DNA of 50,475 nucleotides from Escherichia phage vB-Eco-KMB25. Shown piece by piece: positions 26,949 to 47,987 of the stretch. The notes under the pieces were generated by a model, which saw only the letters and a program-made list of their open reading frames with translations, did no database searches and had not been told where the DNA came from. The translations under genes and the position numbers were made by a program. The first letter of the stretch is position 1; each line of letters starts with the position of its first letter. The DNA lies in sequence record OR424386.1, one strand, 5' to 3'.

Positions 26949-26991
26949 ATGATAAACCATGCCAGGCCGGAATTTTTAGCAATCAGTGCTA
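26949..26991 (-). promoter_or_regulatory. dyad-box promoter (TAGCACTGATTGCTAAAAA, 18 bp, TATCAT)
   Basis: Box overlaps the last codons of the upstream gene (..DSTDC stop). Confidence 0.45.
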
Positions 26992-27584
26992 TCGACGGAA
27001 ATCACAACGCGTTTCTTCTGATTGGCTTCCTTTGCTTTGCGCCGTTCTTCTTTCGCCTTGTCGCGTTCAGCTTTGCGCCGCGCTTTCTCCTTCTCGCGTT
27101 CTTCTGGAGTCATAGACCGTAACGGATCGTAAGGCCGAACAAATCCGCGCGCCTCCGCTTCTTCTTTTGTGACAAATCGCATGAGCTTTCTGTTGCTGCA
27201 ACGATTCTCTAATGGCTTGCCGTTGTTGTCAAAGCGCAAATCTGGACGGCAATATGAAGCGCGGAAACCGTTAAAACCTTTGCGGCGGTAATCCTTTTGG
27301 ATCAGTTCAGCGCCTTTAGCTGAAATCATTCCGCGCTCTTTCCATCCCCACACTGTTTTAAGGTTAACGCCAATCTCACGCGCCAACGCAGCACAGCCGC
27401 CATAAGCGCTAACCACTTCATCAAGCCTAGCTTTTAATCCTGCCCTTACTTCTTCCTTTAGTACCAGATAACCGCTAACAGGTGCGCGGCGCTTCCGGTC
27501 TTTACCACGCCTTACGCCGTTGTTACCATTGATTGTGCGTTTGTCGATTTCGCCCGTTGAGGCCGCAATTTTGATTCCGCCCAT
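26976..27584 (-). CDS. putative DNA-binding protein with Lys/Arg/Glu-rich C-terminus
   Basis: ATG 27584 behind AGGTGA; HTH-like segment AALAREIGVNLKTVWGW; protein ends DSTDC, encoded by the dyad box. Confidence 0.3.
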   Translation of the reverse strand: MGGIKIAASTGEIDKRTINGNNGVRRGKDRKRRAPVSGYLVLKEEVRAGLKARLDEVVSAYGGCAALAREIGVNLKTVWGWKERGMISAKGAELIQKDYRRKGFNGFRASYCRPDLRFDNNGKPLENRCSNRKLMRFVTKEEAEARGFVRPYDPLRSMTPEEREKEKARRKAERDKAKEERRKAKEANQKKRVVISVDSTDC

Positions 27585-27595
27585 ATTTTCACCTA

Positions 27596-27637
27596 TAGCA
27601 CTTTTTGCTAAAACTATTGAGTAAGTTTGTGTATGAT
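27596..27637 (+). promoter_or_regulatory. dyad-box promoter (TAGCACTTTTTGCTAAAAC, 17 bp, TATGAT)
   Basis: Upstream of the helicase gene. Confidence 0.5.
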
Positions 27638-27672
27638 ATGGTGCAAATGGCATTTAGTCAAAAGGATAAGTA

Positions 27673-29646
27673 ATGATTCCTAACATTGAAAAACAGATTG
27701 AAGAACTTGGAGCGGAAAAGATAAAGGCAATACAAAAACGCTTCACAGTTGGTGAAATTGTGCCTTACGAATATCAATGCGTTGCATACGTTGAGATCGC
27801 AAAGCGTTTAAGCCGTTATGAACATCCGTTTTTTGTTAAGGCGGCTGTATCGGCTGGTAAAACAATCATCTTTGCTATGGTTGCGGCTCAGTGCCGTAAA
27901 ATGGGGTTGAAAGCGTTATTTCTGGCGCGTCAATCTGAAATTGTGGATCAGGATTCAAAAGAGATTAGCGCCTTTGGTGTTCCGAATTCCGTTTATTGCG
28001 CTGGCCTGAATACCAAAAGCGCTTATTTCCCGATTGTTGTCGGATCGGAAGGCACTGTAATTGGTGGATTGAATAAAGCGTTGGGTGATTACGTCCCGCA
28101 AGTTTTAGGTATAGACGAATGTCATCAAGTCAACTGGAATGATATTGTTGAAGCCGAGGAAAACGGCGAAAGCATAGAGCAAATGATGACACCGAAAGGT
28201 GAACCAGTTGAAGGGAATCCGTTGCTGATTGGTTCAGGCCGCGCACAATACACCATTATCATTGCAGAAATGCGCCGCCGTTGCCTTGAGACTTACGGTC
28301 ATCAGTTGCGCATATTTGGAATGACAGGATCGGAATATCGCGGAATTGAGCCGATACTTGTCGAAGATAAAAGAATTCCTGGGTTTTGGCGTGAGCAGAT
28401 CACAAACATTGATACTGATTACCTGGTAAAATTTGGTTCAGTTGTTCCCACTTATTTTGGCAATGTTGGTGATTTGGGTTACGACTTATCAGAATTTACG
28501 CCAGTACATGAATTTGGCGTTGCTGATTATGACCAGAAGCAATTAAAGGCAATGAGTGACAAGATTCACAAATCAGGAACCATGACGCAGAAAATAATGC
28601 AGATGGTTCATGAGGTGATGAAAAACCGCTTGTGCGCTCTTGTTACTTGCGCTGACGAAAGGCACTGTAAAGAGGCGGCGGCGGCGCTTCCTCCTGGCAC
28701 GAAATATCACATTATTACCGGAAAAACTGGAGAGAAACAGAGGCGCTTATGGCTTGAGGATGCTTATGAAGGCAGGGTGAAATATATTTTTCAGGTTCAG
28801 GCGCTAACAACTGGCGTGAACGTGCCGCCGTGGGATACTTCTGTTATTTTGCGTAAGATCGGAAGTCTCACGCTATTAACTCAACTTTTGGGGCGTGGTA
28901 TGCGTCAATTAAAAACATACCATAAAGAAGTATTGGGGATGCACAAAACGGATCACCTTGTTTTGGATTTTTCAGGCACGATGTTTGAAATGGGTAATTT
29001 GTATTTCGATCCGATGTTAGAGCAAGCGCAATTCCAGTTACGTAAATCACAGGACAAAGATCCGAAATATTGCCCGATTTGCGGTACAGAAAATTCATTC
29101 TATGCTCGCCGTTGCATTAATGAGGATGAAAACGGAAATCGTTGTGAACATTTCTGGACGTTCCAGGAATGTGAGGATCAGATTGATGACCGCACAAAGA
29201 AAGTTATTGTAAAAGGTTGCGGCGCAAAAAATGACGTTGCGGCGCGTGTATGCCGTTGCTGTAATGTTCAGTTACGCGATCCAAATGATAACTTATCCGG
29301 CAAGATGTACCGTAAAAACGATTGGTGCGACGTGTTAGATTTTAATGTGACGCTGACAAAAAACCAGGCTGGCGTAATATTCTGCTACACGTTACGTGAT
29401 AGTGGCGGCGTAGAATTCAGGGCATACGAAAAATATTTCCCTGAATCAGAACACAAGATATGTAAAACGCTTTGGACAAAGGCGGTTAGAACACATGTTA
29501 TAGATCGCCAAGCCGCAAACTTTATGATCACTTGCCGCAATGCAATTAAGATCATGAGTTATGCGGGGCAAATATTGCCGCCAAAACGTGTTACCCATCG
29601 CAAGAACACAAAGAAAGAAGATTTGATCGCACAGAAGGAGTTTTAA
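27673..29646 (+). CDS. SF2 DNA helicase (DEAD/DEAH-box type)
   Basis: Walker A AVSAGKT, DECH box, motif VI QLLGRGMRQ; C-terminal Cys-rich zinc-ribbon-like region. Confidence 0.8.
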   Translation: MIPNIEKQIEELGAEKIKAIQKRFTVGEIVPYEYQCVAYVEIAKRLSRYEHPFFVKAAVSAGKTIIFAMVAAQCRKMGLKALFLARQSEIVDQDSKEISAFGVPNSVYCAGLNTKSAYFPIVVGSEGTVIGGLNKALGDYVPQVLGIDECHQVNWNDIVEAEENGESIEQMMTPKGEPVEGNPLLIGSGRAQYTIIIAEMRRRCLETYGHQLRIFGMTGSEYRGIEPILVEDKRIPGFWREQITNIDTDYLVKFGSVVPTYFGNVGDLGYDLSEFTPVHEFGVADYDQKQLKAMSDKIHKSGTMTQKIMQMVHEVMKNRLCALVTCADERHCKEAAAALPPGTKYHIITGKTGEKQRRLWLEDAYEGRVKYIFQVQALTTGVNVPPWDTSVILRKIGSLTLLTQLLGRGMRQLKTYHKEVLGMHKTDHLVLDFSGTMFEMGNLYFDPMLEQAQFQLRKSQDKDPKYCPICGTENSFYARRCINEDENGNRCEHFWTFQECEDQIDDRTKKVIVKGCGAKNDVAARVCRCCNVQLRDPNDNLSGKMYRKNDWCDVLDFNVTLTKNQAGVIFCYTLRDSGGVEFRAYEKYFPESEHKICKTLWTKAVRTHVIDRQAANFMITCRNAIKIMSYAGQILPPKRVTHRKNTKKEDLIAQKEF

Positions 29647-29648
29647 AA

Positions 29649-30056
29649 ATGGTTACTGATAAAGGCGATTATCTGGAGTATTACGACAAATCAGATCCAG
29701 ATGACAGAAAAGAGGAAGCGCACCAGGTTGATTCTTATTCATGGTTAACATATGAGTTTCCAATGTGGCTTGTTTGGCACACTAAAAACGAAGGGAAGAA
29801 AACAATAGGCACAGCAGTAAAGGATCAGCAAGCAGGTGTAAAAAAAGGAGTAAGCGACATTCTAATCCTGACTGGTTTTATTGGCTGCAAATATGCATTC
29901 ATTGCAATTGAGCTTAAACGAGCCAACAAGAAAGGAACTAAAGTAAGCCAGGAACAAAGGGAATTCTTGCGCCGCGTTAGGGAATGCGGAGGATTTGCCG
30001 CAGTATGCTATGGTGTAGATCAAGTAAAATTGGCTATCGCAGACGCTACAAAATAG
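29649..30056 (+). CDS. VRR-NUC domain nuclease (putative)
   Basis: 135 aa; core ...DILILTGFIGCKYAFIAIELKR...VSQEQREF... resembles the VRR-NUC D-E-K fold. Confidence 0.5.
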   Translation: MVTDKGDYLEYYDKSDPDDRKEEAHQVDSYSWLTYEFPMWLVWHTKNEGKKTIGTAVKDQQAGVKKGVSDILILTGFIGCKYAFIAIELKRANKKGTKVSQEQREFLRRVRECGGFAAVCYGVDQVKLAIADATK

Positions 30057-30096
30057 CACTTTTTGTTAAAACAGGCGCGACGGAATGCGCCATAAT
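30054..30096 (+). promoter_or_regulatory. dyad-box promoter (TAGCACTTTTTGTTAAAAC, 18 bp, CATAAT)
   Basis: Box TAG is the stop codon of the upstream gene. Confidence 0.5.
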
Positions 30097-30127
30097 GCAC
30101 ACATCAGAACGAAACGGAGAATTAACC

Positions 30128-30406
30128 ATGAAAAAGATGTTATCAGTAGTTGCTTTATCACTTGCCATTGTCGGTTGCATGGATAAACCAAAAACATATA
30201 TTTGCGGAAATGAAGCGTTTGAGGTTACAAGCGAATATATGAAAGTTGTGCAAGGTAAAAGCACAGGCGTTGTAATGGATAATATCAGCAAAAATCAATA
30301 TAAGCTGTTTACGCCAATTGGAACGGCTTTTTACACTGTTAACGATAGCACCATTGATATTAAAGTTGGCGTTTATCAGAACACTCTAACTTGCGAGGTA
30401 AAATAA
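30128..30406 (+). CDS. small lipoprotein (hypothetical)
   Basis: 92 aa from ATG 30128 behind GGAG; signal peptide with lipobox MKKMLSVVALSLAIVGC. Confidence 0.45.
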   Translation: MKKMLSVVALSLAIVGCMDKPKTYICGNEAFEVTSEYMKVVQGKSTGVVMDNISKNQYKLFTPIGTAFYTVNDSTIDIKVGVYQNTLTCEVK

Positions 30407-30407
30407 A

Positions 30408-31148: not shown

Positions 31149-31377
31149 AATGAGCATTCGATTAGCCGATCACATGAAATGGGATTTATTTGTCGGTATG
31201 ACAATTCGCTTACTTGATAAGCATGGTTATAACGATGATAAAATGGAGTTGATAAACTGCCTGGATATGACATTTGACGAAATCAAAGTTGCGCCTTTGT
31301 ACATGTGGGAAAGAAAAATTGAGCACGACCTGATACAATACAAACGCAGAGAGGGCGCACGATTTTTCAATGTGAAA

Positions 31378-31420
31378 TAGCACTTTTTGTTAAAACCCGC
31401 TACGGCGGGTTTTGTATTAT
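31378..31420 (+). promoter_or_regulatory. dyad-box promoter (TAGCACTTTTTGTTAAAAC, 18 bp, TATTAT)
   Basis: Spacer contains terminator-like hairpin CCCGC-TACG-GCGGG followed by TTTTG. Confidence 0.5.
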
Positions 31421-31923
31421 GTGCTTAACGGAAAACAAGAGGATTTCAAAAATGAAAATCGTAAACGTCGAATACTTCAAAGATGCGCAATGGCTGGCTA
31501 AAGAATCATTGTTTATGCTTGATCGCAAAAATCCAAAGGTTATTGCACAAATACTTTGGAATGACGCAATGGAGTTACTTAAAAAGGCTTACGGTTATGA
31601 AAGTGAAGAAAGGTAAAAAGGAAACTTGGGAGCTTGCTAAAAAAGGCGGTCTTGATGAAGGGATCGCCAAAATAGCAAAGTATTTCGATATTAAAGACGT
31701 GTGCGTTATTGTTGGTGACGAAATGGCGTATGTTGAAGAAAAGCCGCGACGTGTTCACCGTGTTCCGGCAATACCAACAACAATAGACTATAAATCAGTT
31801 ATTAACAAAACCAAAGAACAAAAGAAATATTACAAATGAGATACATTTCTGTTATTTTGTTGCCGCCTGTTATCGCTTGGGTTATTATGTACGCCGTTGT
31901 TATGAATTAAGAGGATGTTAAAC

Positions 31924-34268: not shown

Positions 34269-34490
34269 TTAAAAAATATTGCTCATTAAGTCTTGAAAAC
34301 TATTGCCGCTATAATCCTTTTCTTCAATAATGTGAGCACCTTTCTTTTTTATATCCCACAGCATTTTTTCATACTCGCAGCGGTTAATGCCAAACGTACT
34401 ACCATCATCAACATATGCGGTTCCTTTGTTGTTGAAAACGTCAAATGTAACATTAACAACGCGAATTGTTTTGATAGTGCATTTTAACAT
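34269..34490 (-). CDS. hypothetical protein
   Basis: 73-aa ORF downstream of a dyad-box promoter. Confidence 0.3.
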   Translation of the reverse strand: MLKCTIKTIRVVNVTFDVFNNKGTAYVDDGSTFGINRCEYEKMLWDIKKKGAHIIEEKDYSGNSFQDLMSNIF

Positions 34491-34526
34491 TTTGTTTTCC
34501 TTTTGTTGCTACGTTTCGTTAAAACA

Positions 34527-34569
34527 AATATACCCGATACAAGATCGGGTGTTTTAACAAAAAGTGCTA
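34527..34569 (-). promoter_or_regulatory. dyad-box promoter (TAGCACTTTTTGTTAAAAC, 18 bp, TATATT)
   Basis: Box TAG is the stop codon of the upstream gene. Confidence 0.5.
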
Positions 34570-34687
34570 TTCAAAGCGCCTGACGTGAATTAGTAGTTCA
34601 CCGTCATCATTTGTTAACTGGTGCTCATTATCTCCAAACGCTCGCATGTCACTGTAAAGCAATAGCAATAATGAGTAGACCAAATCA

Positions 34688-35082: not shown

Positions 35083-36663
35083 TTACCCCATTAACGCCGG
35101 ATTTACATAAACAAATTTACCAACGCTGCAAACATAATTCTTTTCTTCAAGCATTGGCAATAATTGTTCCTCAATTCGTTTCATCACGCCTGATTGACCT
35201 GTAAACGGCTTAACCTTACGCGCACTTTCATAGATGGCTCTTGCATTGGTAACTCCTTTATTTTGACGTGAGATCTTAATGATGATTTCAATTAACTTGC
35301 TCATTTCGGCATCATCGCCAGCGTGACCGGAAGCATTAGCGGCGTTGATATATGTTTTGCTTAATTCGCTGAACATCACCAAAGCCTCTTGCATTGTCTC
35401 AACTTCAATTTCTCGCGACTTTTGCGGCGTACCGTTTGGATTAAACCAATTGCGGATCGTGTGCAATACTGACGCAATGCGGATCACTTGCTTATCCATT
35501 TTGCCCAAAGCACCACGCAACATTGTATGTGAATATTTCCCGCCGTCTGCTAAATCTGGCTCTAATTGCTGGCGAGCAATATTAAGAACACGCATTGCAG
35601 AACGTGACGGCTTCAATACAACATTTTGCTCAGTCATGATGTTATGAATCAACTGGAAATATTGCGCCTTTAATTCTTTATCAACTGGCGTGTAATCAAG
35701 ATCACCATTTTCATCAATAAATACACGCTCGCCTAACATTGTTTTTTCACGTACAAGCAAGAAACGTTCACTAACACCGATACCACGCGCCCCTGCATCC
35801 ATGATCCCTTTTATCGTTTCATCCTGGGCAATTACGCTCATGCAGCCCAACGCAACAAAACTCATATTGTTTTCAGAGTTGGCGCGAGCTATTGAAACGT
35901 GTCCGGCGTCCCATGCTTTTAGAACCAATTCGCTGTTAGTCTTGCGATCACTATTAGCGTAAGTCAATCCGAGTAAGCTGTTGATGCTTGTTGCTTCATC
36001 GGAAATGACAGCAAAGTTACCCTGGCGATTGTTGATCTTTGCTAACCCTTCCGGCGTGGTGTCTGATACCGGAAAAACGATATCGCACATTTTTTCTAAC
36101 TTTTCCTCTAATTCCTCCTTTTCCTCAAACAACGCAGCTAACTCAGTGCCGGAACGTTCAGCTTTCAATTCCTTTTCAACGCCTTTTAATTTCGCTGCGA
36201 TCTTCTTTCGCTCTTTCTTGCGTTGTTCGTTGATGCGCTCAACTTCACAGACCATTGGCGCAATAGCCAGGCTGTTGATTGCTGATTTACCAGTTGATGG
36301 CGGCTGACTGGTTACAACATAAAGCGCCGTTGGTTGTTCAGTGCCGTGGTACTCAACTTGGAAGCGTCCAACCATAGCGGCGGAAACGCAACCAATGAAA
36401 TGCATATAGGCCGATGATTCAGGAAATTGAACAGATTGCGCAATGCTACGTGACAGTTTACCCACAACATCAACATCATTACCCAAAGAGATCACAGGAT
36501 AGCGGTCATTAGCGCCGTTAATATCCTTTACAGGTTCCCAAAAGCTGGACGATTGGCGGTAGCCGTTCGACTGAATAGCAACGCGAAGCGGCGATGTTCC
36601 CTGCGATTCTGCAATGGCTATAACTTGTTGAGGTGTCAATTTGTTGGTGTCAAAGTCAAACAT
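35083..36663 (-). CDS. P-loop NTPase (Walker A/B), possible replication-associated ATPase
   Basis: 526 aa; Walker A TSQPPSTGKS and Walker B-like VISDEAT. Confidence 0.45.
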   Translation of the reverse strand: MFDFDTNKLTPQQVIAIAESQGTSPLRVAIQSNGYRQSSSFWEPVKDINGANDRYPVISLGNDVDVVGKLSRSIAQSVQFPESSAYMHFIGCVSAAMVGRFQVEYHGTEQPTALYVVTSQPPSTGKSAINSLAIAPMVCEVERINEQRKKERKKIAAKLKGVEKELKAERSGTELAALFEEKEELEEKLEKMCDIVFPVSDTTPEGLAKINNRQGNFAVISDEATSINSLLGLTYANSDRKTNSELVLKAWDAGHVSIARANSENNMSFVALGCMSVIAQDETIKGIMDAGARGIGVSERFLLVREKTMLGERVFIDENGDLDYTPVDKELKAQYFQLIHNIMTEQNVVLKPSRSAMRVLNIARQQLEPDLADGGKYSHTMLRGALGKMDKQVIRIASVLHTIRNWFNPNGTPQKSREIEVETMQEALVMFSELSKTYINAANASGHAGDDAEMSKLIEIIIKISRQNKGVTNARAIYESARKVKPFTGQSGVMKRIEEQLLPMLEEKNYVCSVGKFVYVNPALMG

Positions 36664-36690
36664 CTAAAAATCTCCTTCTTGTTGCCGCTA

Positions 36691-36733
36691 ATTATAACGG
36701 CAACATTCTACAGCCTTTTAGCAATTCGTGCTA
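36691..36733 (-). promoter_or_regulatory. dyad-box promoter (TAGCACGAATTGCTAAAAG, 18 bp, TATAAT)
   Basis: Perfect -10 hexamer lies in the loop of hairpin GTTGCCG/CGGCAAC. Confidence 0.5.
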
Positions 36734-36979
36734 TTTGATCGGCTCAACCCTGGCTAATAACCTTCCATCTATAATGCTATGACATTCAAGAGTTTTAGGA
36801 TCGAATGCAAGCGAACGATGGAACGTATGACCAATCAGCAAATATGAATGCTTATCCCTGATGCGATAGACCGTTTCACCTTCCTTTAATGACGATATCG
36901 CACTAAAAACAACCTTGTAACGATATTTTTGCATGGCCTCAGAACGGTGAGGCGTATAGTCTTTTTCTGGTAAACTCAT
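36731..36979 (-). CDS. hypothetical protein
   Basis: 82-aa ORF whose TAG stop is the first triplet of the downstream dyad box. Confidence 0.3.
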   Translation of the reverse strand: MSLPEKDYTPHRSEAMQKYRYKVVFSAISSLKEGETVYRIRDKHSYLLIGHTFHRSLAFDPKTLECHSIIDGRLLARVEPIK

Positions 36980-37338
36980 GAGTATTTGGCCTCAAACAGA
37001 TAAGCACCGCCAGCGGCAGAGAATCCAACTTCTTCCCGATACAGCGTGAAACGGTCGCCGTTTTCGTCGAACACGTATCCAGCAACAGCACCTAACACGC
37101 GGCCTTGTTCGATCTGGTAACGCTTATCGGCTTTGAAAGTTTTCTTGATCTGCATGGAGTGGTTTACCCATGTGCATTTAATGGTTTTGGTCTTAACATT
37201 TCGGAATGTTAATCCTGTTAAGTTTGCGTGAATCCATTTCCCATCTAACTTAACGAAAGTATCATCATTTTCGTCTACCCGCGCTTTGTATAGGCGGTTA
37301 TCAGATCCGATAAGTTTGATTGATTTGAATTTAGCCAT
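36976..37338 (-). CDS. hypothetical protein
   Basis: 120-aa ORF with RBS AAGGAG. Confidence 0.3.
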   Translation of the reverse strand: MAKFKSIKLIGSDNRLYKARVDENDDTFVKLDGKWIHANLTGLTFRNVKTKTIKCTWVNHSMQIKKTFKADKRYQIEQGRVLGAVAGYVFDENGDRFTLYREEVGFSAAGGAYLFEAKYS

Positions 37339-37370
37339 TTGATTTATCTCCTTTTGTTTTCGTTGAAATC

Positions 37371-37413
37371 ATTATGCCGGATACGTGATCCGGCGTTTTA
37401 ACAAAAAGTGCTA
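37371..37413 (-). promoter_or_regulatory. dyad-box promoter (TAGCACTTTTTGTTAAAAC, 18 bp, CATAAT)
   Basis: Spacer is hairpin GCCGGAT-CACGT-ATCCGGC. Confidence 0.5.
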
Positions 37414-38106
37414 TTTCTGATTTGCCAGGCATACAGCAAGCGCAAAGCCGCGCGGAGTGAGTGAGCGGATCAGCTTTGTTCGCTTAGACTTGCCGCCGAG
37501 CTTTTGCCAGCCTGGATTGTTGTTCCCTGTTGGCAATACTGCGTTTGTATCCGGCATTACAAAGCCGTTACCCGTCCAAAGACAAGTTTTTTTGGTGTAC
37601 GCATCGCGAGCGGGAATGATTTCAGGAAAGTGAGGATGTTTATCATCTTCCGGCAACAGACCTCCAAACGCGCAAGGATGAAAGATAAAATCAGGTTGCC
37701 GCCACATTGACGACAGAACACTAACAGGATTCTCAATCATATATGGAACGTTAAACCGATCCGCAATATTGGCAGCAATCTTTGCCGTTTCAACCGCCTT
37801 TTTCTGGAAGTCTGGATCACGTTCACGCTTTGCTGCAAAGTGACGCGATCCGCTAACAGCTAAATCAGTGCATGGAGGGAATGCAATAATAAAATCTGGA
37901 GTGCCAAAGACGCGCATCATTGCGTTATGCTGGAATGATAATCCGATCCACTCATTCAAATAAACGATGTTGGGATGAGTCACGCGCACTGATTGGTAAT
38001 CACCATGATCAGCACCGTCGAAATTAAAGCACAGCACTTTGTGACCACGTTCAGCCCACGGCAACGCAGCATAACCAGAACCATCAAATAGTGAGAAAAT
38101 AAGCAT
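37411..38106 (-). CDS. putative SAM-dependent DNA methyltransferase (C5-cytosine-like motifs)
   Basis: 231 aa from ATG 38106 behind AAAGGA; motif I-like LFDGSGY, PC-containing FPPCTD, ENV-like MIENPVSV. Confidence 0.4.
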   Translation of the reverse strand: MLIFSLFDGSGYAALPWAERGHKVLCFNFDGADHGDYQSVRVTHPNIVYLNEWIGLSFQHNAMMRVFGTPDFIIAFPPCTDLAVSGSRHFAAKRERDPDFQKKAVETAKIAANIADRFNVPYMIENPVSVLSSMWRQPDFIFHPCAFGGLLPEDDKHPHFPEIIPARDAYTKKTCLWTGNGFVMPDTNAVLPTGNNNPGWQKLGGKSKRTKLIRSLTPRGFALAVCLANQK

Positions 38107-38783
38107 GTTTAAATCCTTTCTGTATGACCTTGCAAGGCATTTTGTTTGTAGGTGTGACAATCGTATTAGTTACGGCCTGAAATCGCGAAATAATGCGAAA
38201 CAGGCCGCTATTTTTTACTTACAGAATGGGCATGTTGTTTTATCCCCGCTTCCGCCGTGTTTTGGACAGCAAATTTTTTCGATAGGTGTCATTTTAAATA
38301 CTCCTTAGAATGGGAAACAACGCTTGCAAGATGGATCGAAGTTACAACCGCAATCATTGATTATTGCGTTAGGATCAGCAAGCATCACGCTACTTTCTTG
38401 ATCCATATCCATAGCGCCTAATGCGTCATCAAGCGTTATTTCAAGATAGGCAACTTTAAGCGCCCATTCCTTGTTGAGTCCATCCGCCTCCGCTTCATGT
38501 AGGCGAGCAAAGAAAGCATCTTGAACCATATCAACCCCACTTCTCAATAAACATGCTCATTTCGTCAATCATCGCGTAAGCATCGCTTTCAGTCATGCGA
38601 CGGATTCTTCCGCCTGGGTGTTCGCCAACAGCGTAACCAGTTTTTACGCGGGTAATCGTTAACTGATGGAATCCAGAATCGCGATCCATTTTCAAAACTA
38701 CTTTCCCGTGAGCTTTGACAATGTTCATGATGGATTCAGTTTTCAGTTTCATTTTTGATTCTCCATTTTGTTTATGTGAAAGT

Positions 38784-38826
38784 ATGATACCAATCAGAGC
38801 GTTATCGTTTTTAGCAATTCGTGCTA
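38784..38826 (-). promoter_or_regulatory. dyad-box promoter (TAGCACGAATTGCTAAAAAC, 17 bp, TATCAT)
   Basis: Box encodes the C-terminal NSTNC of a 51-aa upstream ORF (38822-38978). Confidence 0.45.
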
Positions 38827-38974
38827 TTTACGGCGATAAACGGATATCCTGTTAAATCTGCATTTCTATAACGTGCAGACCTAACCCAACAGCCGCCTTT
38901 GCTCATAATTAAAGCGTTTTTATGGCGAATGTTCACGCGGCAAATTCTTCCGGTTTTTATGTTTTTGAAGTAGG

Positions 38975-39208
38975 TCATAATTTAACCTCATGATACTCTA
39001 TAAACTCTTGCACATATGCGCATTCGCGCGGCGACTCCTGGCCTTTTATCACCTCACAGCCACCATTAAACAGATAGCAGTGCTGGCAAAGGTTGCCACC
39101 TGCGTTTTCCTCAGCGATCTGAATTCCGGTACACAAACCGCCACCAAACCTATGAGGAAAATCGTAAGCCTGGCAGCGGCACGTTGCTTGATTCCGCTTA
39201 CGTTTCAT
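38975..39208 (-). CDS. cysteine-rich small protein (hypothetical, possible zinc binding)
   Basis: 77 aa with several CxC/CxxC-type motifs. Confidence 0.3.
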   Translation of the reverse strand: MKRKRNQATCRCQAYDFPHRFGGGLCTGIQIAEENAGGNLCQHCYLFNGGCEVIKGQESPRECAYVQEFIEYHEVKL

Positions 39209-39521
39209 TAGATGTTCTCGCTAATAAACTGGATAACCTGGCGAAGATGTTTTTCATCTTTAATTAATGCTGGCAATTCTTCCATAACTTCTTTTTTAAG
39301 ATAAATGTTTGCATTCCAGGTGAATGAGCCATCACCATTTACGCGGTAAGAGCAAAGCCATTCGCAATCATTATCAGATTCCCAAATGCACAGCGTTTCA
39401 AATTCTTCAAACTTGTTGTAACCCGTTTCAATGCTTAACTCAATGCCACGTTTGCCAGCGAAGTTAGTAGTTGTTTTTGATACCATCATTTTAAAATTCT
39501 CCGGTTCGTTTCGATGAATGC

Positions 39522-39564
39522 ATTATGCCAAAACAAACCGGATCGCTTTTAACAAAAAGTGCTA
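39522..39564 (-). promoter_or_regulatory. dyad-box promoter (TAGCACTTTTTGTTAAAAG, 18 bp, CATAAT)
   Basis: Upstream of gene 39208-39489. Confidence 0.5.
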
Positions 39565-40340
39565 TTTAATTAAAATACGAATACCTTTTCGCACGCTTTC
39601 CGTCGCCTCCGTAATGGTCATTAGCAACAGCAAGAATCCAAGCGTTAGGAATAAAAAATAGCTTCATTAATCACTCTCCATGACAATTACAGGCTCCAGG
39701 CGCTCAAGCACCACTTTGAAATCGGAGTAAAAAGTAGGGCGACGTTTTGTTAATTCCTCATATGTATCAGTTGCCAGGCAAGCGCGATCACCTTCATAGC
39801 ACACAACTCGCTTACCATTGGCGCGGCTTATTGCAACGACGCGATAAGTATTATTGATCATTTCATCACCTCAATTGAATAAATACTTTCAACGCCTGGC
39901 GCGTATAACCGATCTCCATCTTCAGTTATGCAAAGACAAAGTGCAAGGCCGCGATTGTCTGAAATATGCAAGTCATTTTGTCTATCCATCAAAATTTCAT
40001 ATTCGCGATCTTCATCAAAGCGCCAAACGCTTAACATGCACTTTCCAGATGATTTAACTTTTACTTTCTTTCCGGCGAAATTTAAACGACTCATTGCGCC
40101 ACCTCCACAGTTTCAAATACGGTATTGAATGCCAGAAGTTTAAATTTCTTGCCAGGCTCAACAACCTGAATATTCCAGGTAATGCCGCCGTGATATGCAA
40201 CCATATCATCAATATCGACGGTGATTTGTGCGCCCTTCTTGAATAAACCTTTTTCATGGCTCGCATCGCGTACAGTAACCACAGTTTCGAATTGAGTTTG
40301 AATTTCCATCGTTAATCTCCTGATTGGTTTCGATGGGGTA

Positions 40341-40383
40341 ACTATATCAAGATACCCCGATCCGGTTTTAACAAAAAATGCTA
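40341..40383 (-). promoter_or_regulatory. dyad-box promoter (TAGCATTTTTTGTTAAAAC, 18 bp, TATAGT)
   Basis: -10 lies in the loop of hairpin GGGGTA/TACCCC. Confidence 0.5.
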
Positions 40384-40384
40384 T

Positions 40385-40819
40385 TTACAGCCATTCGCCG
40401 GAAACAATGAAATCAGTGAAATCGTCATGATCCAAAATGCTGTGATAGCCAGTGCAATAATCATTTTTAACCATGTTACCACGCAAACGCACATAATCAG
40501 CCTTTCGATCCGTAATCCAACGAATAAAGCGAGCGTTACGTTGTGGTATCGTTCCGGCGTAAGCCTCTTTGAATCCAATGTGTGCGATGAATGCCACAAA
40601 GCGGATTTGCAAGCCTGGATTGTCTTTCTTTGCCTCGTTAACCAGGTCGCGGAAGTTTTCACGCGTTGGCTTGACCGGAACCAATTCGCCTAACTCGATC
40701 ATGCGGTTGAAGTCTGAAATGCTGGAATATGATTGCATAAACAGCCCATCGCTACCAAACATCACAACGCCGTTTTCGATGAAGTAAGTGTGTCCGTTGT
40801 ATTTGTTGGTGTATTTCAT
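40385..40819 (-). CDS. hypothetical protein
   Basis: 145 aa from ATG 40819 behind GAGG. Confidence 0.3.
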   Translation of the reverse strand: MKYTNKYNGHTYFIENGVVMFGSDGLFMQSYSSISDFNRMIELGELVPVKPTRENFRDLVNEAKKDNPGLQIRFVAFIAHIGFKEAYAGTIPQRNARFIRWITDRKADYVRLRGNMVKNDYCTGYHSILDHDDFTDFIVSGEWL

Positions 40820-40850
40820 CGTGAATTCCTCAGTTCGTTTCGATGAAGCA

Positions 40851-40893
40851 ATCATAGCAATTCGCGTCTGATTGGTTTTAACAAAAAGTGCTA
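40851..40893 (-). promoter_or_regulatory. dyad-box promoter (TAGCACTTTTTGTTAAAAC, 18 bp, TATGAT)
   Basis: Outermost promoter of the minus-strand cluster, at the edge of the AT-rich region. Confidence 0.5.
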
Positions 40894-40902
40894 TTCATGC
40901 GA

Positions 40903-41294: not shown

Positions 41295-41482
41295 ATGATA
41301 TTGATACCCCTTTACTGATTGATAGAGTATAAAATTATAAGATAGGTGCTCTTATTTATTATAGGTGGCGGTGATTTTTAGCGAAATGGTGTAACGATTT
41401 AGAACATCGTTGATTTGAAAGGATAAATTTTCAATTACTGTTACATTGCGTGATGTTTTTGTTGTCTAATCAAAAATAACAC

Positions 41483-41510
41483 TTGACGCATAAGCCAGGC
41501 TTGCTAAGAT
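41483..41510 (+). promoter_or_regulatory. sigma70-type early promoter TTGACG-16-TAAGAT
   Basis: Upstream A-rich tract; about 35 nt before the GGAGG RBS of the first early gene. Confidence 0.55.
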
Positions 41511-41544: not shown

Positions 41545-41832
41545 ATGGTAAGGGGCAAAATCGTAAAGCGTGACCTATCCATAGTTGACGCAACGCCAGA
41601 AGATGCAACCAAAGATATCATGCGCCTAATGTACATAGCACGGATACTGGAGGCTGCAAAACCAAACAGGCTGTATTACATCGACATTAAGGCATCTGGT
41701 CGAGATGTTAACTCATTGCGCCAGGCAATAAACACTATTGCGAAAGAGGATCGCATAACCATTAAGACAATAACCACTGATAACGGCTATATAGGCTTTG
41801 TTATCATCGACGTTAAAGAAGCGTTTGTGTAA
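41545..41832 (+). CDS. hypothetical early protein
   Basis: 95-aa ORF with RBS GGAGG. Confidence 0.3.
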   Translation: MVRGKIVKRDLSIVDATPEDATKDIMRLMYIARILEAAKPNRLYYIDIKASGRDVNSLRQAINTIAKEDRITIKTITTDNGYIGFVIIDVKEAFV

Positions 41833-41843
41833 AGAGGTGAATC

Positions 41844-42287
41844 ATGGAACAAATGACAAGTAAAGAGTTTTGCGAAAAATTGCGTGAAGCCGCAAGAGCC
41901 GCTGCAACAGGTGAAGTGATCAAGTTGCCAGTTGCCTACATAACAATGAACGTCCAGGCAGAGGACGCAAAGAAACTAAATTCATCATACATCCGCACGA
42001 TCATGAATCGCGTACCTGAAGTAAAAGAGGTTGGATCTGTAAGTGTCAAGAAAAAGACAAGTGATGACGGAGCGGAATATTACGAAATAGCAATTAACCG
42101 CGACACAAAACGCCGCATCGTGACAACCAATGACCTTCCGGCAATCAAAGAGCATGAGCGCGAAAAGCTGGTTGAAAAGATTATGCGCATATCGCCGGAC
42201 TTCTCACACCTGGACGATGAAAAGGCACTGGTTGCAATGCGAGCGGTTGCCACGTTCAAAGAACTGATTAAGGAGATCGCGAAGTGA
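41844..42287 (+). CDS. hypothetical early protein
   Basis: 147-aa ORF with RBS AGAGGTG. Confidence 0.3.
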   Translation: MEQMTSKEFCEKLREAARAAATGEVIKLPVAYITMNVQAEDAKKLNSSYIRTIMNRVPEVKEVGSVSVKKKTSDDGAEYYEIAINRDTKRRIVTTNDLPAIKEHEREKLVEKIMRISPDFSHLDDEKALVAMRAVATFKELIKEIAK

Positions 42288-42510
42288 AAGCATTCGCCTT
42301 TGTCGCTGCAATGTGGTGTGTTGTTATTGATAGTCCTGGCGTGGCGCTGGTTGTGTTAGGTCTGATTTTGTTGGGGGTGTTTGATGAATAAGAAACTTTT
42401 AGATCATGCCGTGGTGTTCTTTATCGCTGCTGCTGGATTTTCGCTGTTGTCAATTGCTTTTTCAATCCTTGCTTTTGCCGTGTCAATGCTGAAATGACGG
42501 ATTACATCCT

Positions 42511-42553
42511 GATTGGCAAATAGCACTTTTTGTTAAAACTCGATTGGGGTAGT
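42511..42553 (+). promoter_or_regulatory. dyad-box promoter (TAGCACTTTTTGTTAAAAC, 18 bp, CATAAT)
   Basis: -10 in the loop of hairpin TGGGGTA/TACCCCA; followed by TCGAAACGAAACGAGG leader. Confidence 0.5.
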
Positions 42554-43355
42554 TTGGCATAATTACCCCATCGAAACGAAACGAGGAAAACACAATGACT
42601 ACCTTAATCACCTGGGAACACGAAACAAGCCAGCCAGTAACCCGCGAGTTTGAAACTCTTAGCCAGGCTTATCTTTTGGCTGCTAACGGTGGTTATTACA
42701 AGGCTCAAGTTGTTGATGAAATGGGAGTGATCGTTTATGAATTCCATGCATAATTTCCGCAGCTACACGCAGGAAGTGGATTTTGAGGGGATCAAGTTAC
42801 CACTTCCTAACATATACCGCTATATCACTCGTGATGAATACGGATTTATAAACGCCTGGCGAGATAAGCCCAAAAAGGTTGGCAATGAATACGGCGACGG
42901 CTCAGAGATGCCGATCACGTTAGGTCATCAAACTGGCGAGAATGTAGCGGCTGTAATGCGCAAATATCGCCGCAGCCTCACAAACTCATTAATTTCTATC
43001 TTTGGCATACAGGAGTAATAAAAATGTTTGAACTGAAACGCGTAACTGTTGAGATCCTGAATGATGGCTCTTACGATGGAATGAAACACTTAACATTCCC
43101 GATCCGCATTGAGAATTGCATTGATTACGGTATTGAAGTTGGAATGGTTGACGTTCCGCTTGATGCCCTGGTAGCGGCTGGCTATGACAAAGAGAAAGGC
43201 CAATGCGCCGATATACCGGATAGCTATGAAAGCGACACACATTTCCCGTTCACCTATGGCGAATGCAGGATTGTTGATTGAGGTTATAAAGTGAGCAGTT
43301 GGCATAATGAACACGTAATGCAATTCTACCGCTACAGAATAAAGAAAATGCTAAA

Positions 43356-43398
43356 TAGCACGAATTGCTAAAACTAAATCAGGGGCATTTGTTATAGT
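43356..43398 (+). promoter_or_regulatory. dyad-box promoter (TAGCACGAATTGCTAAAAC, 18 bp, TGtTATAGT)
   Basis: Extended -10-like TGnTATAGT in the loop of hairpin AGGGGCA/TGCCCCT. Confidence 0.5.
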
Positions 43399-43432
43399 GC
43401 CCCTCGTTGAGTTAAGCAAAGGAGAATCAACA

Positions 43433-43987
43433 ATGTTAAGCATCGAAAAAATCAACTTCCCGATCACATTTAAAAATTGCGCTAACGGTAAAAATATTAC
43501 ATATCACAGTGAATACAGCAACGGCGTTTGGAGTAGCGGCGAGAAAAGCAGTCTTTCATTGCAATATTTCATTAAGCTGCATAATGAGCATAACCAAAGC
43601 AATAGTAATGTGTTGAGGTACTATTACGAAATGGCAGAAAAACGCGAGGATAACGATCTGTTATATGCGATGAAATATTTAAATATCAGGCCTGGCCATG
43701 TCAATTTAAACGGTGCTGTGTTTACTGAGTCAGTAGGTGCTAAAGATTACGATTACATTTGCAAGGTTGAAAATATGCCAGTTGGCGCAACGCTTTTAGG
43801 TGTTCAGCGTGAAAATGGCGAATGGGACGAGTTGAAATTTAAACCGCGCCGCATTGAAGTACATGACGATGTTATTTGCTTGCTTTCCGGTTATTCTGGT
43901 GGCTACAAGAGCGGCAATAATTACGGCGCTGAAATCAACATTAAGATCGGCACTAACGTAAAAATCAAAAACAGCACGAATTGCTAA
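43433..43987 (+). CDS. hypothetical early protein ending in NSTNC
   Basis: 184 aa from ATG 43433 behind AGGAG; last five codons are supplied by the next dyad box. Confidence 0.3.
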   Translation: MLSIEKINFPITFKNCANGKNITYHSEYSNGVWSSGEKSSLSLQYFIKLHNEHNQSNSNVLRYYYEMAEKREDNDLLYAMKYLNIRPGHVNLNGAVFTESVGAKDYDYICKVENMPVGATLLGVQRENGEWDELKFKPRRIEVHDDVICLLSGYSGGYKSGNNYGAEINIKIGTNVKIKNSTNC

Positions 43988-44014
43988 AACAGAATTTTGA
44001 GCTTGCTGTATAGT
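43972..44014 (+). promoter_or_regulatory. dyad-box promoter (CAGCACGAATTGCTAAAAC, 18 bp, TATAGT)
   Basis: Box embedded in the 3' end of the upstream CDS. Confidence 0.45.
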
Positions 44015-44361
44015 AAGCTCATACCAAACAACGAAAGGATCAAAAAATGGAATTAGCACGTAACGCGGTTTATGGCTTACACCTTAATAAAGGCGGCAAA
44101 GGCTCAAGTTATGCACACCTTTTTCATGTTAACGAGCGCGGTCAAATTGATATTGCAATGTATGTTGACAAACTGGTTAAAGGTTGTGAGTCCAGCAAGT
44201 TCAGACCCGATCTGATTGAATACGATCACACACACAGTCACGACCACTGGTTAGGTGGTTATAAATTTACAATGCTTGATAGCCATGTTATTGACACAAG
44301 AAAATTAACGAATCGTGACTATAGGCGCATGGCTCGAAAAATCCTGAAGCAGAAAGCGCAA

Positions 44362-44404
44362 TAGCACGAAATGTTAAGCGGTCATGTGTGCTGATTGGTA
44401 CAAT
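44362..44404 (+). promoter_or_regulatory. dyad-box promoter, degenerate box (TAGCACGAAATGTTAAGCG, 18 bp, TACAAT)
   Basis: Downstream leader GCATCAACCAACAAGAGAGGA is nearly identical to that at 22164-22184. Confidence 0.4.
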
Positions 44405-44547
44405 GACCGCATCAACCAACAAGAGAGGATAGAAAAATGTCAAAAGAATCAATTAAGCAGTTTCTGAAATACGGCTCTATGATTGTGCTCGCTACCGTTG
44501 TGCTGGCTGGCATCGCTTACAGTGTCATCGAATTTGTGGGGTAATGG

Positions 44548-45111: not shown

Positions 45112-45477
45112 AGATCGGCATGGTGATAACGTGCTTATTTACATCGAAGGGAAATCGGTGTTGATTGACTGCAAATATGAGGATGACACACATTTGCAGT
45201 TTCGCGGAATCTTTGACAAGAAAGGCGCATTGGAGTTAGCGGAACACATCAAGCGTCTTGCGGAAGAATTACCGGAATAGAGGATTTATTATGTTGACTT
45301 TTATCTTGATCGCTATCGTTTTAATTCTGTATGTTTGCGGCGCTTTCCTGATGCGAGCGCTACTAAAAGAGGCTGACGCTGATGATAAGGATAGTTGGAA
45401 GCCGATTATTTTATGGCCTGGCTATATCATCGTGCCAATTTACGAACTAATCCGCGATGGTGAGTTTAAATGGTAAA

Positions 45478-45520
45478 TAGCACTTTTTGCTAAAACTTGC
45501 TAAGGCACATTTGATAAAGT
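45478..45520 (+). promoter_or_regulatory. dyad-box promoter (TAGCACTTTTTGCTAAAAC, 18 bp, TGaTAAAGT)
   Basis: -10 in the loop of hairpin AGGCACA/TGTGCCT. Confidence 0.5.
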
Positions 45521-46024
45521 GTGCCTTGTCGAGACAAGCAAGGAGAATGACACATGAAAGTTTTTATGATTAAACAGTTTGGACGCACTGCATATTATAT
45601 CATCAACGACGAGGGAGATATTTTCATTTCGAACTATCCTACTCTTGAAGTAGGTCGTCATTTCAGAAGTTCAGTTGACGAAAAGGGAGTTATCAATATG
45701 GTTGAGTGTGGAATGATGGTTCCCTTCAATAAAGAAGCGGCTGAATTATTCCAGCAATCACAGATCCGAAAACGCAACCGCAATATTATTTGCTTCACAA
45801 TTGCAATGGTTGTAACTGTTGGCTCAATCTTACTTGGAGTGTGGTCGTGATGAATACTGATAATAAAGTTGAAACACAAAAGACGATCAACTATCTGCGA
45901 GCGCTTGCTGATGCTCTTGAGTCCGGCGAGGCAGCATTAAATGATGTTAGTATTGAGTCAAGAAATCACGGATGGACTCAGATCGAAGAAACATTAACCG
46001 TTCAATATTTTAAGGTGAATAAAG

Positions 46025-46600
46025 ATGGCTAAAATTATAATCCTCAATGCGCCTCCTGGTGCTGGTAAAGACACGATAGGCAAGATGATTTCTGTCTATT
46101 CGCCTGGTAAGCAATGCCGAATCATTAGCTTTAAAGAGCCAATGTTTGATATTGCATTAGCTATCCTGGGCAAAGAGAACTATAAGCGTTTCATGCTGGC
46201 TTACGATGACAGAGAGCAGAAAGAAAGGCCGCAAACATTCCTGATGGGTATGTCACCGCGCGAGTTCATGATCTGGATTAGCGAGGATGTGATCAAGCCT
46301 AAATTCGGTAAGGATTATTTCGGCGTAAGGTTTAATCAGAAAGTAAAAGAGTGTGATGCTCCTGTTGTTTGCACTGATGGCGGTTTTCCAGATGAAATTA
46401 TAGCGCTAATCAATGCTGGTAATGAGGTGAAGTTATGCCGCTTGCACCGCGACGGGTTCACGTTTGCAGGTGATAGCCGCAACTACATTCGAATAAATCC
46501 ATACTACCAGAAAAACGGATATAGCGAGCACGATTATAAATTGGTTGATAAACAACCAAATGTAACGGTAAAGGAAATCATTCGCGATCACCTTAAATAG
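46025..46600 (+). CDS. P-loop kinase (polynucleotide or nucleotide kinase-like)
   Basis: N-terminal Walker A LNAPPGAGKDT; 191 aa; 0.9 kb downstream of the HAD phosphatase. Confidence 0.5.
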   Translation: MAKIIILNAPPGAGKDTIGKMISVYSPGKQCRIISFKEPMFDIALAILGKENYKRFMLAYDDREQKERPQTFLMGMSPREFMIWISEDVIKPKFGKDYFGVRFNQKVKECDAPVVCTDGGFPDEIIALINAGNEVKLCRLHRDGFTFAGDSRNYIRINPYYQKNGYSEHDYKLVDKQPNVTVKEIIRDHLK

Positions 46601-46640
46601 CACGAATTGCTAAAACTTGCGCAAGGCCATTTGTTATAGT
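46598..46640 (+). promoter_or_regulatory. dyad-box promoter (TAGCACGAATTGCTAAAAC, 18 bp, TGtTATAGT)
   Basis: Box TAG is the kinase stop codon; -10 in the loop of hairpin AAGGCCA/TGGCCTT. Confidence 0.5.
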
Positions 46641-47474
46641 GGCCTTATTCAAGAGAAGCAACCAATCAGAGGAATAAACGATGAAAATCAAATGCACCAA
46701 ATCAAACACAATGAATCTGACAGTTGGCGCGATTTACCATATGGAAGAAGGTGTAAACGGGTTTAGCCCAACTGTTACGCATGAGTACGGCGGTCACTTC
46801 TTCTTAAACGGTAAAGACGGATTATCTGTAAATGTTGGCTCTTTCGTTCTGGCAGAATTTGAGATCGTGGAGGAATAAAAATGTTCTGGATTCATTCGCC
46901 GCAAGGTTTGCTTTATGTGCCTGGCGTTGAATTTGAAGAACGACGCGACGGCGACACGGTAAACATCATAACTAAGGATTCAAAAGGCCACACTCTTAAA
47001 ACGTATGTTTTAAACACTCCGGTTAAGGTCGAAAAAGATGATTAAATTTATTGGTTTTGTGGCATTGCTTGTGTGCGGCATATGGCTTACTGACAATGAC
47101 ACTTGGCAAAGTGCTGTTGGAGGATTACTTATTTTTCTTGCTGGTGGCATGGTTGGCAGTGATGACGCAACAAATAAGAACAAACTTTCGGATCATTTAC
47201 GCAGAGAGACAAAACGATGAATAGAAAAATGCTGGTACGCGCCTTTGCTAAGATTGCTAAAAGGTGGGGAGACTCTAACAAATCGCCTTACACGTTTAGC
47301 CGCTACGGTTATAAAAATGCTCGCGACTGGGGTCGCTGCATTGCGGATAACTACAACTCCGAAATTCTGGAAGATTTCGCAAAGTGGATTGATACGCCTT
47401 TGAAGGATTGGTGTCAATTTGACTATGACTATTTCGCAGAAGAAGAAATTTCTTGTTTGTAAGGAGAATAAAAT

Positions 47475-47987
47475 ATGAAAGCTAAAAATGATTTTTATAA
47501 CTACCTGACAAAAGGCCGCGACTATACCGTTTTGAATAGCATAGATACTCTTTACCTGGTTGTTGCTGATAATGGCGTTAGAGTTTGGCTTGATAAAACT
47601 CTTTTCGAAAGCGAGCACCTAAGCAATGCAAAGCGGATCGCAGATGAAGCAAGTGCATTAGCAGAGCGTGAAAGAATTCGCGATATCGTTGCGGAGCAGG
47701 TGAGAAATTCATGTTCGCCTGGTGGCGATATCTTCAAATCAATGCGCGGTGAAATGACTGTTGGAATTCAAGATCGCGTAATTGCAAAATCAGTTGATTC
47801 TGTAATTGAGAATGCGAAATTCAATGCGTTGATTAACTCAGAGCCTAACGAATACGTCAAAGTGTTAGAGCAACTGCGTGAAGTGCTGAGAGTGCCGGAA
47901 GGTGAGAATATAGTGACTCATGCAAAGGTTGTAAGGACGTTGGCTGATGCTTTGCTTGACGTTTACCCAGGAATGAAGTGCAAATAG
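47475..47987 (+). CDS. hypothetical early protein
   Basis: 170-aa ORF whose TAG stop begins the next dyad box. Confidence 0.3.
   Translation: MKAKNDFYNYLTKGRDYTVLNSIDTLYLVVADNGVRVWLDKTLFESEHLSNAKRIADEASALAERERIRDIVAEQVRNSCSPGGDIFKSMRGEMTVGIQDRVIAKSVDSVIENAKFNALINSEPNEYVKVLEQLREVLRVPEGENIVTHAKVVRTLADALLDVYPGMKCK

Follow-up and report, generated by a model that had tools for sequence, protein, structure and literature searches.

A repeated box in Escherichia phage vB-Eco-KMB25 that coincides with gene ends and resembles a host marbox ahead of candidate promoters

A short direct repeat has been reported from T1-like phages. In the announcement of Citrobacter phage Stevie it was described as 16 copies of VWATAGCAYKWWTTGYTAAAAV, 'role unknown' (PMC4319613), and a 2024 paper on phage TLS placed aaATAGCACnnnTTGnTAAAA about 76 nt ahead of start codons, with similar repeats in T1, Rtp, and Rogue1 (PMC11447400). 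The TLS authors considered a stoperator, an enhancer site, or an UP element, and left the function as an open question (PMC11447400). In both papers the repeats are asymmetric, oriented with transcription, sorted into T, G, and A spacer groups, and called intergenic (PMC4319613, PMC11447400); stop codons and gene overlap go unmentioned in the TLS main text (PMC11447400), and the Stevie GenBank record annotates the copies as repeat_region. Here we analyzed this element, hereafter the box, in the 50,475-nt sequence of Escherichia phage vB-Eco-KMB25 (OR424386.1), the whole of which is referred to as the window. The 21- to 22-bp T1-like repeat is the same element as the window box, agreeing with it in the aaATAGCACnnnTTGnTAAAA consensus, in orientation, and in distance to the ATG.

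We found no mention of an 18-bp register to the -10 hexamer or of marbox identity for the T1-like repeat in the literature searched, nor any link there between T1-like phages and marboxes. The repeat itself is known; what appears not to have been described is that it ends genes in three frames, keeps a fixed class II register, and has the identity of a marbox. With moderate confidence, we favor the reading that the box copies belong to compact stop/hairpin/promoter cassettes, in which the box would be a marbox activated by host Rob, MarA, or SoxS.

The box and the ends of upstream genes

The window represents a T1-like siphophage, and its positions 26000-48000 are 99.3% identical to Stevie (Drexlerviridae, Tempevirinae, Tlsvirus), whose annotation was mapped across to supply gene names. 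The box has the consensus (A)AATAGCAC-NNN-TTGYTAAAAC, numbered here with index 0 at the T of its TAG, and is present in about 21 copies; scanning the window for TAGCAC-N5-GYTAAAAC at up to 2 mismatches returned 21 matches versus 0.85 expected. The same box is present in the T1 genome. For every window box, we determined the first stop codon in each frame and the open reading frame (ORF) closed by it. Relatives were covered by a scan of 18 loci from diverse Drexlerviridae, based on the published host marbox consensus and a -10 requirement and nothing else, which yielded 124 unique box contexts.

Seventeen window boxes follow a co-directional gene, and for 16 of them the stop codon of that gene lies inside or directly against the box; the sole gapped box, at 42521, lies 24 nt from its upstream gene. 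The stops are reached by three routes. Eight genes end on the box TAG, usually as Lys-stop; four end on the internal TAA at index 13, which gives (N/D)ST(N/D)C tails; and four end on a TAA at index -4 to -2 that is formed by a T and the two conserved flank A's 5' of the TAG (gene ends at 22118 and 45476, and at 39566 and 40385 on the minus strand). A preliminary description of this DNA had recognized stops in two of the three frames, both of which were recovered here, but it overlooked the third, used by the four flank-TAA genes. All six of its AAA-TAG ends on the first box triplet were verified (30056, 31380, 46600, and 47987 on the plus strand; 36731 and 37411 on the minus strand), yet two more TAG-terminated genes had been missed, one at 34567 on the minus strand with Glu-stop and one at 44364 with Gln-stop at a degenerate box. 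The NSTNC end of gp68 (43631-43987) and the DSTDC end of the minus-strand regulator gene at 26976 were likewise reproduced. The NSTNC tails that it assigned to two small ORFs are real, but the coordinates were about 10 nt off: the ORFs lie at 43291-43371 (26 aa) and 38811-38978 (55 aa), not at 43282-43370 and 38822-38978.

Similar usage was seen outside the window. In the T1 annotation, 15 boxes follow a gene, and in 13 of these cases the gene's stop lies within or directly next to the box; in one T1 box the TAG is mutated to CAG with the stop relocated to an in-box TAA at index 6. When upstream ORFs of 50 or more codons were considered in the 124 contexts, the closest one stopped at index 0 (n = 55), 13 (n = 17), -4 (n = 10), -3 (n = 5), or 6 (n = 3). 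Use of frame 0 was about double that of each of the other two frames; these statistics include related sequences and possibly some spurious ORFs, and the window and T1 annotation counts are firmer.

The preliminary description had further proposed that a signal in the DNA, under selection separate from coding, dictates these C termini, and four tests support this. Mean conservation over the 16 specified positions was 0.95 in boxes used as TAG stops, 0.89 in boxes translated in frame 1, and 0.88 in boxes outside ORFs. Comparison of orthologous gene ends, a check that the same description had named, showed that the regulator gene ends within the box and in the same frame in four diverged lineages, with tails of DSTDC (Stevie/TLS group), NSIFS (T1), and NSTNS (two further groups), while the upstream C-terminal sequence differs, as does protein length (202 versus 151-158 aa). 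When the window is compared with Stevie, gp81 is hypervariable over its final 30 nt, until an invariant AAATAG is reached. Siphophage relatives from Klebsiella and Salmonella, with helicases about 42% identical, lack the box, and their VRR-NUC and RecE homologues end in other residues, with TGA or TAA; because these homologues end differently, conservation of the terminal residues for protein reasons where the box is absent, which would have spoken against the proposal, was not what we found.

Coding also constrains the box, by way of its degenerate spacer, so that the influence runs in both directions. The spacer is TTT, encoding Phe, in only 2 of the 17 boxes translated in frame 1 versus 72 of the other 107 (Fisher p = 2e-5, with contexts that are related), and from this avoidance of TTT we argue that the tails are really translated. 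The 26-aa ORF at 43291-43371 (+) carries the Stevie annotation 'Stp activator of host PrrC'; since it ends NSTNC inside the box and about one-fifth of it is box encoded, the annotation looks questionable, as does the gene call. An intermediate lineage (IMGVR_UViG_2974632794, helicase 48% identical) has shifted or degenerate boxes, at about 9860 and 2070. At its regulator gene, loss of one base from the T-run puts the TAA out of frame and the protein ends ...NSIFVKQ at a downstream TGA; its RecE gene ends on a TAA directly 5' of the variant box cGGCACAAATAGCTAAAC.

Anatomy of the candidate promoters and the marbox match

The anatomy downstream of the box is as regular as its use for stops. In each of the 20 cassettes, box and downstream gene point the same way. 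Almost every window and T1 copy has a -10 hexamer beginning at index 37; across the relatives, the hexamer begins at index 37 in 92 and at index 36 in 30 of the 124 contexts. It reads TATAAT in consensus, A2 and T6 being conserved at 100%, and G occupies -14 in 82% of copies. A conserved CA at index 48-49 is the likely transcription start site, predicted near index 49. After it come an A/C-rich leader, a ribosome-binding site, and an ATG at index 69-83 (mostly 74-77), which is the annotated gene start in 20 of 20 cassettes. For gp32, the Stevie-annotated start (window 30005; 30005-30406, +) makes the gene span box and promoter; the likely true start is the ATG at 30128, 74 nt past the box and after GGAG, and the product from there begins MKKMLSVVALS, resembling a signal or lipoprotein leader.

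The label 'dyad' in the preliminary description did not survive. G2 is 100% conserved whereas its symmetric partner, the C at index 12, is conserved in 38%; the flanks AAA and AAAAC are non-complementary; and the orientation is fixed. A symmetric operator for a dimeric helix-turn-helix (HTH) protein was ruled out on the same grounds, namely unequal conservation of the half-sites and constant orientation.

None of the cassettes was picked up by a generic sigma70 scan of the window. The sequence at the -35 position, TAAAAC, matches TTGACA at 2 of 6 bases. Several promoter assignments were tried and rejected. TTGYTA cannot serve as a -35 with a 22-bp spacer to the -10. In the sigma54 (-24/-12) consensus, TGGCAC-N5-TTGC, the GG and GC are invariant and separated by one helical turn, and transcription begins about 12 nt downstream; the box has AG in place of GG, its TTGC is 2 bp closer, and the conserved -10 lying 18 bp downstream does not fit. 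By analogy with the T4 MotA box, the element is about 7 bp too far upstream. The scan did return two canonical sigma70 promoters with extended TG, at 41301-41328 (TTGATA-16-TAGAGT) and 41483-41510 (TTGACG-16-TAAGAT), both on the plus strand, within a 650-bp box-free divergent region. They are probably activator-independent immediate-early promoters. The genes that they precede and would drive differ from those of Stevie: 41545-41832 (phrog_28623) and 41844-42287 (DUF7174).

Host RNA polymerase might also read the box alone, as an UP element or an unusual -35-like element that boosts an extended -10 with no activator. A/T-rich tracts fall at about -52/-50, -43/-39, and -35/-32, the positions of the RNA polymerase alpha-subunit C-terminal domain; G is frequent at -14, and extended -10 promoters can function without a -35; and UP elements were proposed by the TLS authors (PMC11447400). 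We nevertheless hold this to be improbable, for UP elements do not account for near-invariant G2, C3, A4, C5, T10, and G11, TTGYTA at 22 bp from the -10 is too distant for a -35, and an exact transcription factor consensus, together with its geometry, would be left unexplained.

That consensus is the marbox. The box meets every specified position but the last of the classical form, AYnGCACnnWnnRYYAAAY (PMC3709825), and fits exactly both the consensus derived from chromatin immunoprecipitation, GCAHWWWWTGYYAAA (PMC6900184), and an alternative, gcannwwntgnnaaa (PMC12052159). Scanning the window with AYNGCACNNWNNRYYAAA (AYnGCACnnWnnRYYAAA) gave 19 exact matches versus 0.11 expected, and with GCAHWWWWTGYYAAA 14 versus 0.15. 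The conserved blocks GCA-5-TG-2-AAA coincide with the spacing of the MarA-family logo.

The geometry agrees as well. Class II marboxes lie in forward orientation, centered at about -41, where they overlap and replace the -35 (PMC12052159, PMC10268841, PMC8811837). We located the micF marbox of E. coli K-12, ACAGCACTGAATGTCAAAAC, 18 bp ahead of the -10 TAGAAT, with its center at -41.5, and found the corresponding gap to be 18 bp in sodA, 18 bp in nfo, and 17-18 in fumC. These four promoters were reportedly assigned to class II by Martin et al. in 1999. In the phage, the gap from index 19 to index 36 is 18 bp, equal to that of micF, sodA, and nfo, with positions given relative to the predicted start.

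A phage-encoded MarA-like activator was dropped as a candidate: neither a Pfam scan of 50 early-region proteins nor a phmmer search, which used MarA and SoxS sequences as queries, matched an AraC/MarA-like phage protein.

Between box and start site there is usually a hairpin, placed in the 18-bp spacer or formed with the -10 in its loop, and its arms vary in sequence among copies while keeping complementarity. Folding gave z < -2 in 13 of 20 cassettes, with a mean free energy of -12.1 versus -4.9 kcal/mol for random 41-mers. The three cassettes without a co-directional upstream gene (27596, and 20639 and 40893 on the minus strand) have no hairpin, and the hairpin therefore most likely serves the upstream transcript. 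Canonical terminators with T-runs are few (31378, and 26991 and 34569 on the minus strand); most hairpins have no T-run, and the cassette element has no Rfam match.

Such a unit, holding the upstream gene's stop and a hairpin that goes missing along with that gene, could be taken as acting mainly at the level of RNA or recombination, that is, as an end-of-gene signal (stops, AU-rich segment, and hairpin) for termination or processing, or as a shuffling junction like the promoter-early stem-loops (PeSLs), which are composite promoter-terminator motifs tied to indels. Some window/Stevie breakpoints do lie at box edges (20644, about 46600, and 47951-47981, in one genome pair), while others between the same genomes lie away from boxes (36923, 41134, and 42283). 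We judge this the least likely account of the box, very improbable in view of the full conservation of the boxes without an upstream gene (27596, 20639, and 40893) and of the strict 18-bp register and the distance of about 75 nt to the ATG, which are properties of a downstream promoter. RNA or recombination roles may be secondary and compatible with the promoter role.

Proposed mechanism and its standing

Read as a marbox, the box would form the upstream half of a host RNA polymerase promoter: a 20-bp A-TAGCAC-NNN-TTGYTAAAAC that would serve as the site for monomeric MarA, SoxS, Rob, or RamA. Placement would be class II, forward and centered at about -41, 18 bp from a TAtAaT -10 (often extended TG), replacing the -35, with the start codon about 75 nt after the box. 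Promoter activity, initiation near index 49, and binding by host Rob, MarA, or SoxS rather than by a phage protein are predictions of this model, made from sequence; the anatomy, spacing, conservation, stop usage, and consensus match on which it builds are direct observations. Within this family it is Rob that is constitutive and abundant.

Under this model, DNA recognition would fix positions that by chance spell TAG in frame 0 and, from index 13, TAA in frame 1; with the A-rich flank, one extra T would give TAA in frame 2, and the box would thus become an immovable stop in all frames. In a tightly packed, headful-packaging genome, upstream genes would be extended or trimmed to end at the box stops. 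Loss of the upstream stop costs just one to five residues, and gene ends can therefore drift to the box. The tails, ending in Lys-stop in frame 0 and (N/D)ST(N/D/K)(C/S)-stop in frame 1, would be by-products tuned solely via the degenerate spacer, which in translated boxes would be picked for polar residues over Phe. The upstream transcript's hairpin, variable in sequence, would be threaded through the free positions of the promoter (the 18-bp spacer and the -10 region). Some 95 nt would in this way carry a stop codon, an RNA 3' hairpin, a promoter, a leader, and a ribosome-binding site.

Several points weigh against marbox activation. In the literature searched we came across no transcriptome or start-site map of a T1-like phage, and no experiments on binding or genetics in this group. 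Unstressed laboratory cultures, in which little MarA or SoxS is present and most Rob is sequestered, support good growth of T1; promoter function would then have to come from basal activator levels or from extended -10 activity that needs no activator. The final Y of the classical consensus is A in the phage box, as it is in micF. T0, A1, T9, A17, and the upstream AA are conserved beyond the classical consensus, and a different, more specific protein could be responsible. The ORF counts from the 124 contexts contain kin sequences and possibly a few spurious ORFs. Finally, the phage HTH regulator gp29 (26976-27584, -) is conserved and accompanies the box in every one of the Drexlerviridae examined, and the relatives that lack the box lack gp29 as well.

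This last point bears on the alternative that the box is the operator of a phage DNA-binding protein such as gp29, a protein that would turn every box promoter on or off, with the marbox likeness a coincidence or mimicry. An HTH in gp29 weakly matches YdaS/Cro, and the protein also matches phrog_2856, 'transcriptional regulator'; its homologues, missing in the box-less relatives, occur in 830 phage records, essentially all Drexlerviridae. The leader of gp29 itself carries the box at 27596, set between gp29 and the divergent helicase gene in an arrangement typical of autoregulation, and some box copies contain a partial dyad, TAGCA-N5-TGCTA. Against this stand the asymmetry and strict orientation described above (G2 at 100% versus C12 at 38%, non-complementary flanks), the exact match of blocks and spacings to the MarA-family logo, and the 18 bp to the -10, as in host class II promoters. 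Moreover, nearly every early promoter is boxed, operon starts included, and a phage factor would first need the box-less 41301 and 41483 promoters. Host range cannot tell a host factor from a phage factor, because all phages with a gp29 homologue and the box infect Enterobacterales and the box-less relatives infect enterics too. On balance we consider a phage operator unlikely, though the strongest of the three alternatives.

At 27627-27645, the predicted helicase -10 (TATGAT, +) overlaps the predicted -10 of divergent gp29 (TATCAT, -). With these overlapping hexamers and the 27596 box in the gp29 leader, a box-bound activator could redirect RNA polymerase away from gp29 and toward the helicase gene.

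Cassette coordinates, neighboring features, and known systems

The cassettes of the window are listed in Table 1.

Table 1. Box-containing cassettes of the window, with the stop of the upstream gene, hairpin and -10 features, and downstream genes
Cassette	Strand	Box TAG	Upstream gene and stop	Hairpin and -10	Downstream gene and remarks
22117..22196	+	22120	recE-like gp23; TAA 22116-22118 (T plus box-flank AA)	-10 TATACT	Leader; gp24 ATG
27593..27675	+	27596	None co-directional; divergent region	No hairpin	Serves helicase gene (predicted)
30051..30130	+	30054-30056	VRR-NUC gp31; box TAG (...TK-stop)	Short GC hairpin; -10 CATAAT	ATG 30128
31375..31454	+	31378-31380	gp34; box TAG (...VK-stop)	CCCGC-TACG-GCGGG-TTTT, terminator-like; -10 TATTAT	gp35 ATG
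42518..42597	+	42521	gp62; ends 42497, 24-nt gap		
43353..43435	+	43356	26-aa ORF 43291-43371, reads box in frame 1 (...NSTNC); TAA 43369-43371		
43969..44049	+	CAG replaces TAG (43972)	gp68 (43631-43987), reads through (...NSTNC); TAA 43985-43987		
44359..44439	+	44362-44364	gp69; box TAG (...AQ-stop)		Degenerate box TAGCACGAAATGTTAAGC
45475..45556	+	45478	gp73; TAA 45474-45476, one base ahead of box TAG		
46595..46683	+	46598-46600	dNMP kinase gp76; box TAG (...LK-stop)	-10 TATAGT within hairpin loop	
47982..48064	+	47985-47987	gp81; box TAG (...CK-stop)		30 nt upstream hypervariable versus Stevie, box invariant
20568..20642	-	20639	None	No hairpin	Cor-like gene absent from Stevie (predicted to be driven); 5' edge is the window/Stevie homology breakpoint
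26914..26994	-	26991	Regulator gp29 (...DSTDC); TAA 26978-26976	Strong terminator hairpin, -10 TATCAT in loop, then T7 run	Primase ATG
34488..34572	-	34569-34567	gp42; box TAG (...FE-stop)	Terminator-like hairpin	
36661..36736	-	36733-36731	gp45; box TAG (...IK-stop)	-10 TATAAT in hairpin loop	Helicase gp44 ATG
37336..37416	-	37413-37411	Methyltransferase gp47; box TAG (...QK-stop)		
38750..38829	-	38826	gp50 (38811-38978; ...NSTNC); TAA 38813-38811		
39487..39567	-	39564	gp53; TAA 39568-39566, one base ahead of box TAG		
40307..40386	-	40383	gp57; TAA 40387-40385		TAGCAT variant
40817..40896	-	40893	No real upstream gene	No significant hairpin	First leftward cassette

Two further boxes stand apart from these cassettes. 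The A-spacer box ATAGCACAAAAGGTTAAAAG at 16200-16219 (+) is an exact marbox match 21 nt ahead of the ATG (16222) of a large tail protein, which leaves no space for promoter and leader; an ORF of 65 aa that overlaps the gp21 end would finish ...NSTKG in this box and is probably no gene. A consensus box at 6299-6316 (-) lies in the late region opposite the structural genes, upstream of the major head protein gene and adjoining a terminator, and has no good -10 at index 37. Possible readings of this box are an antisense promoter, a decoy site, and an activator site in reverse orientation. T1 has boxes at 15068-15085 (-) and 18832-18849 (-), one of which matches the window position 6299-6316.

The segment 19449-20643 has no counterpart in Stevie and holds a Cor-like superinfection-exclusion gene (20307-20570, -; phrog_1119) with its box at 20622-20639; Stevie homology resumes at 20644, the box edge. 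One early-region protein matched Pfam PF25180, 'Phage antiviral trigger protein Gp54' (E = 1.3e-31), and further early-region matches were to DUF7170, DUF7180, DUF7299, and DUF7334.

Beyond the window, we see roughly even chances that Drexlerviridae conduct their early and middle expression from about 20 consensus class II marbox promoters dependent on Rob, MarA, SoxS, or RamA; such promoters could sense host state, and the replicating array may titrate the regulators off acrAB-tolC and micF. If so, this would be a phage whose whole early program is built upon the host stress regulon, and a large, practically important family, with laboratory contaminants and candidates for therapy against E. 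coli, Klebsiella, Salmonella, and Citrobacter among its members, would be tied to the regulon for multidrug efflux, porins, and oxidative-stress defense. TolC, the receptor of TLS, itself belongs to the MarA/SoxS/Rob-controlled regulon. For transcription control in T1-like phages, the marbox reading offers a directly testable answer to the question raised in the TLS work. For annotation, small genes ending in K-TAG or NSTNC-TAA and starts about 75 nt past a box can be called with confidence. The element is also a clean case in which a regulatory site and a coding sequence constrain each other.

Among described systems, the stoperators of mycobacteriophage L5, the comparison drawn by the Stevie and TLS authors, are likewise short asymmetric repeats oriented with transcription (PMC4319613, PMC11447400). 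They differ in being repressor sites scattered in the transcribed DNA of a temperate phage, whereas the window phage is virulent, and no lysogeny functions are annotated in Stevie. An L5-type stoperator was rejected on the fixed 18-bp register to the -10 and the fixed ATG distance; since each box keeps these distances, initiation rather than a roadblock is indicated. The PeSLs of T4-type phages resemble the cassettes as short repeated units of promoter and stem-loop that flank small early genes, combine terminator with promoter, and mark module boundaries (PMC2839356, PMC4122927). In PeSLs, however, the promoter is a T4 early sigma70 promoter, where here a putative marbox stands in for the -35; the phage cassette often has its -10 in the hairpin loop and the upstream stop inside the element, and a recombination role is weakly indicated. 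Class II marbox promoters of the host share with the cassettes a 20-bp asymmetric site, forward, at about -41 and 18 bp from a canonical sigma70 -10, with no -35. Host sites are degenerate and scattered, whereas the phage boxes, as candidate activator sites, form about 20 near-consensus copies per 50 kb of a virulent genome and are fused to the preceding stop codon and hairpin.

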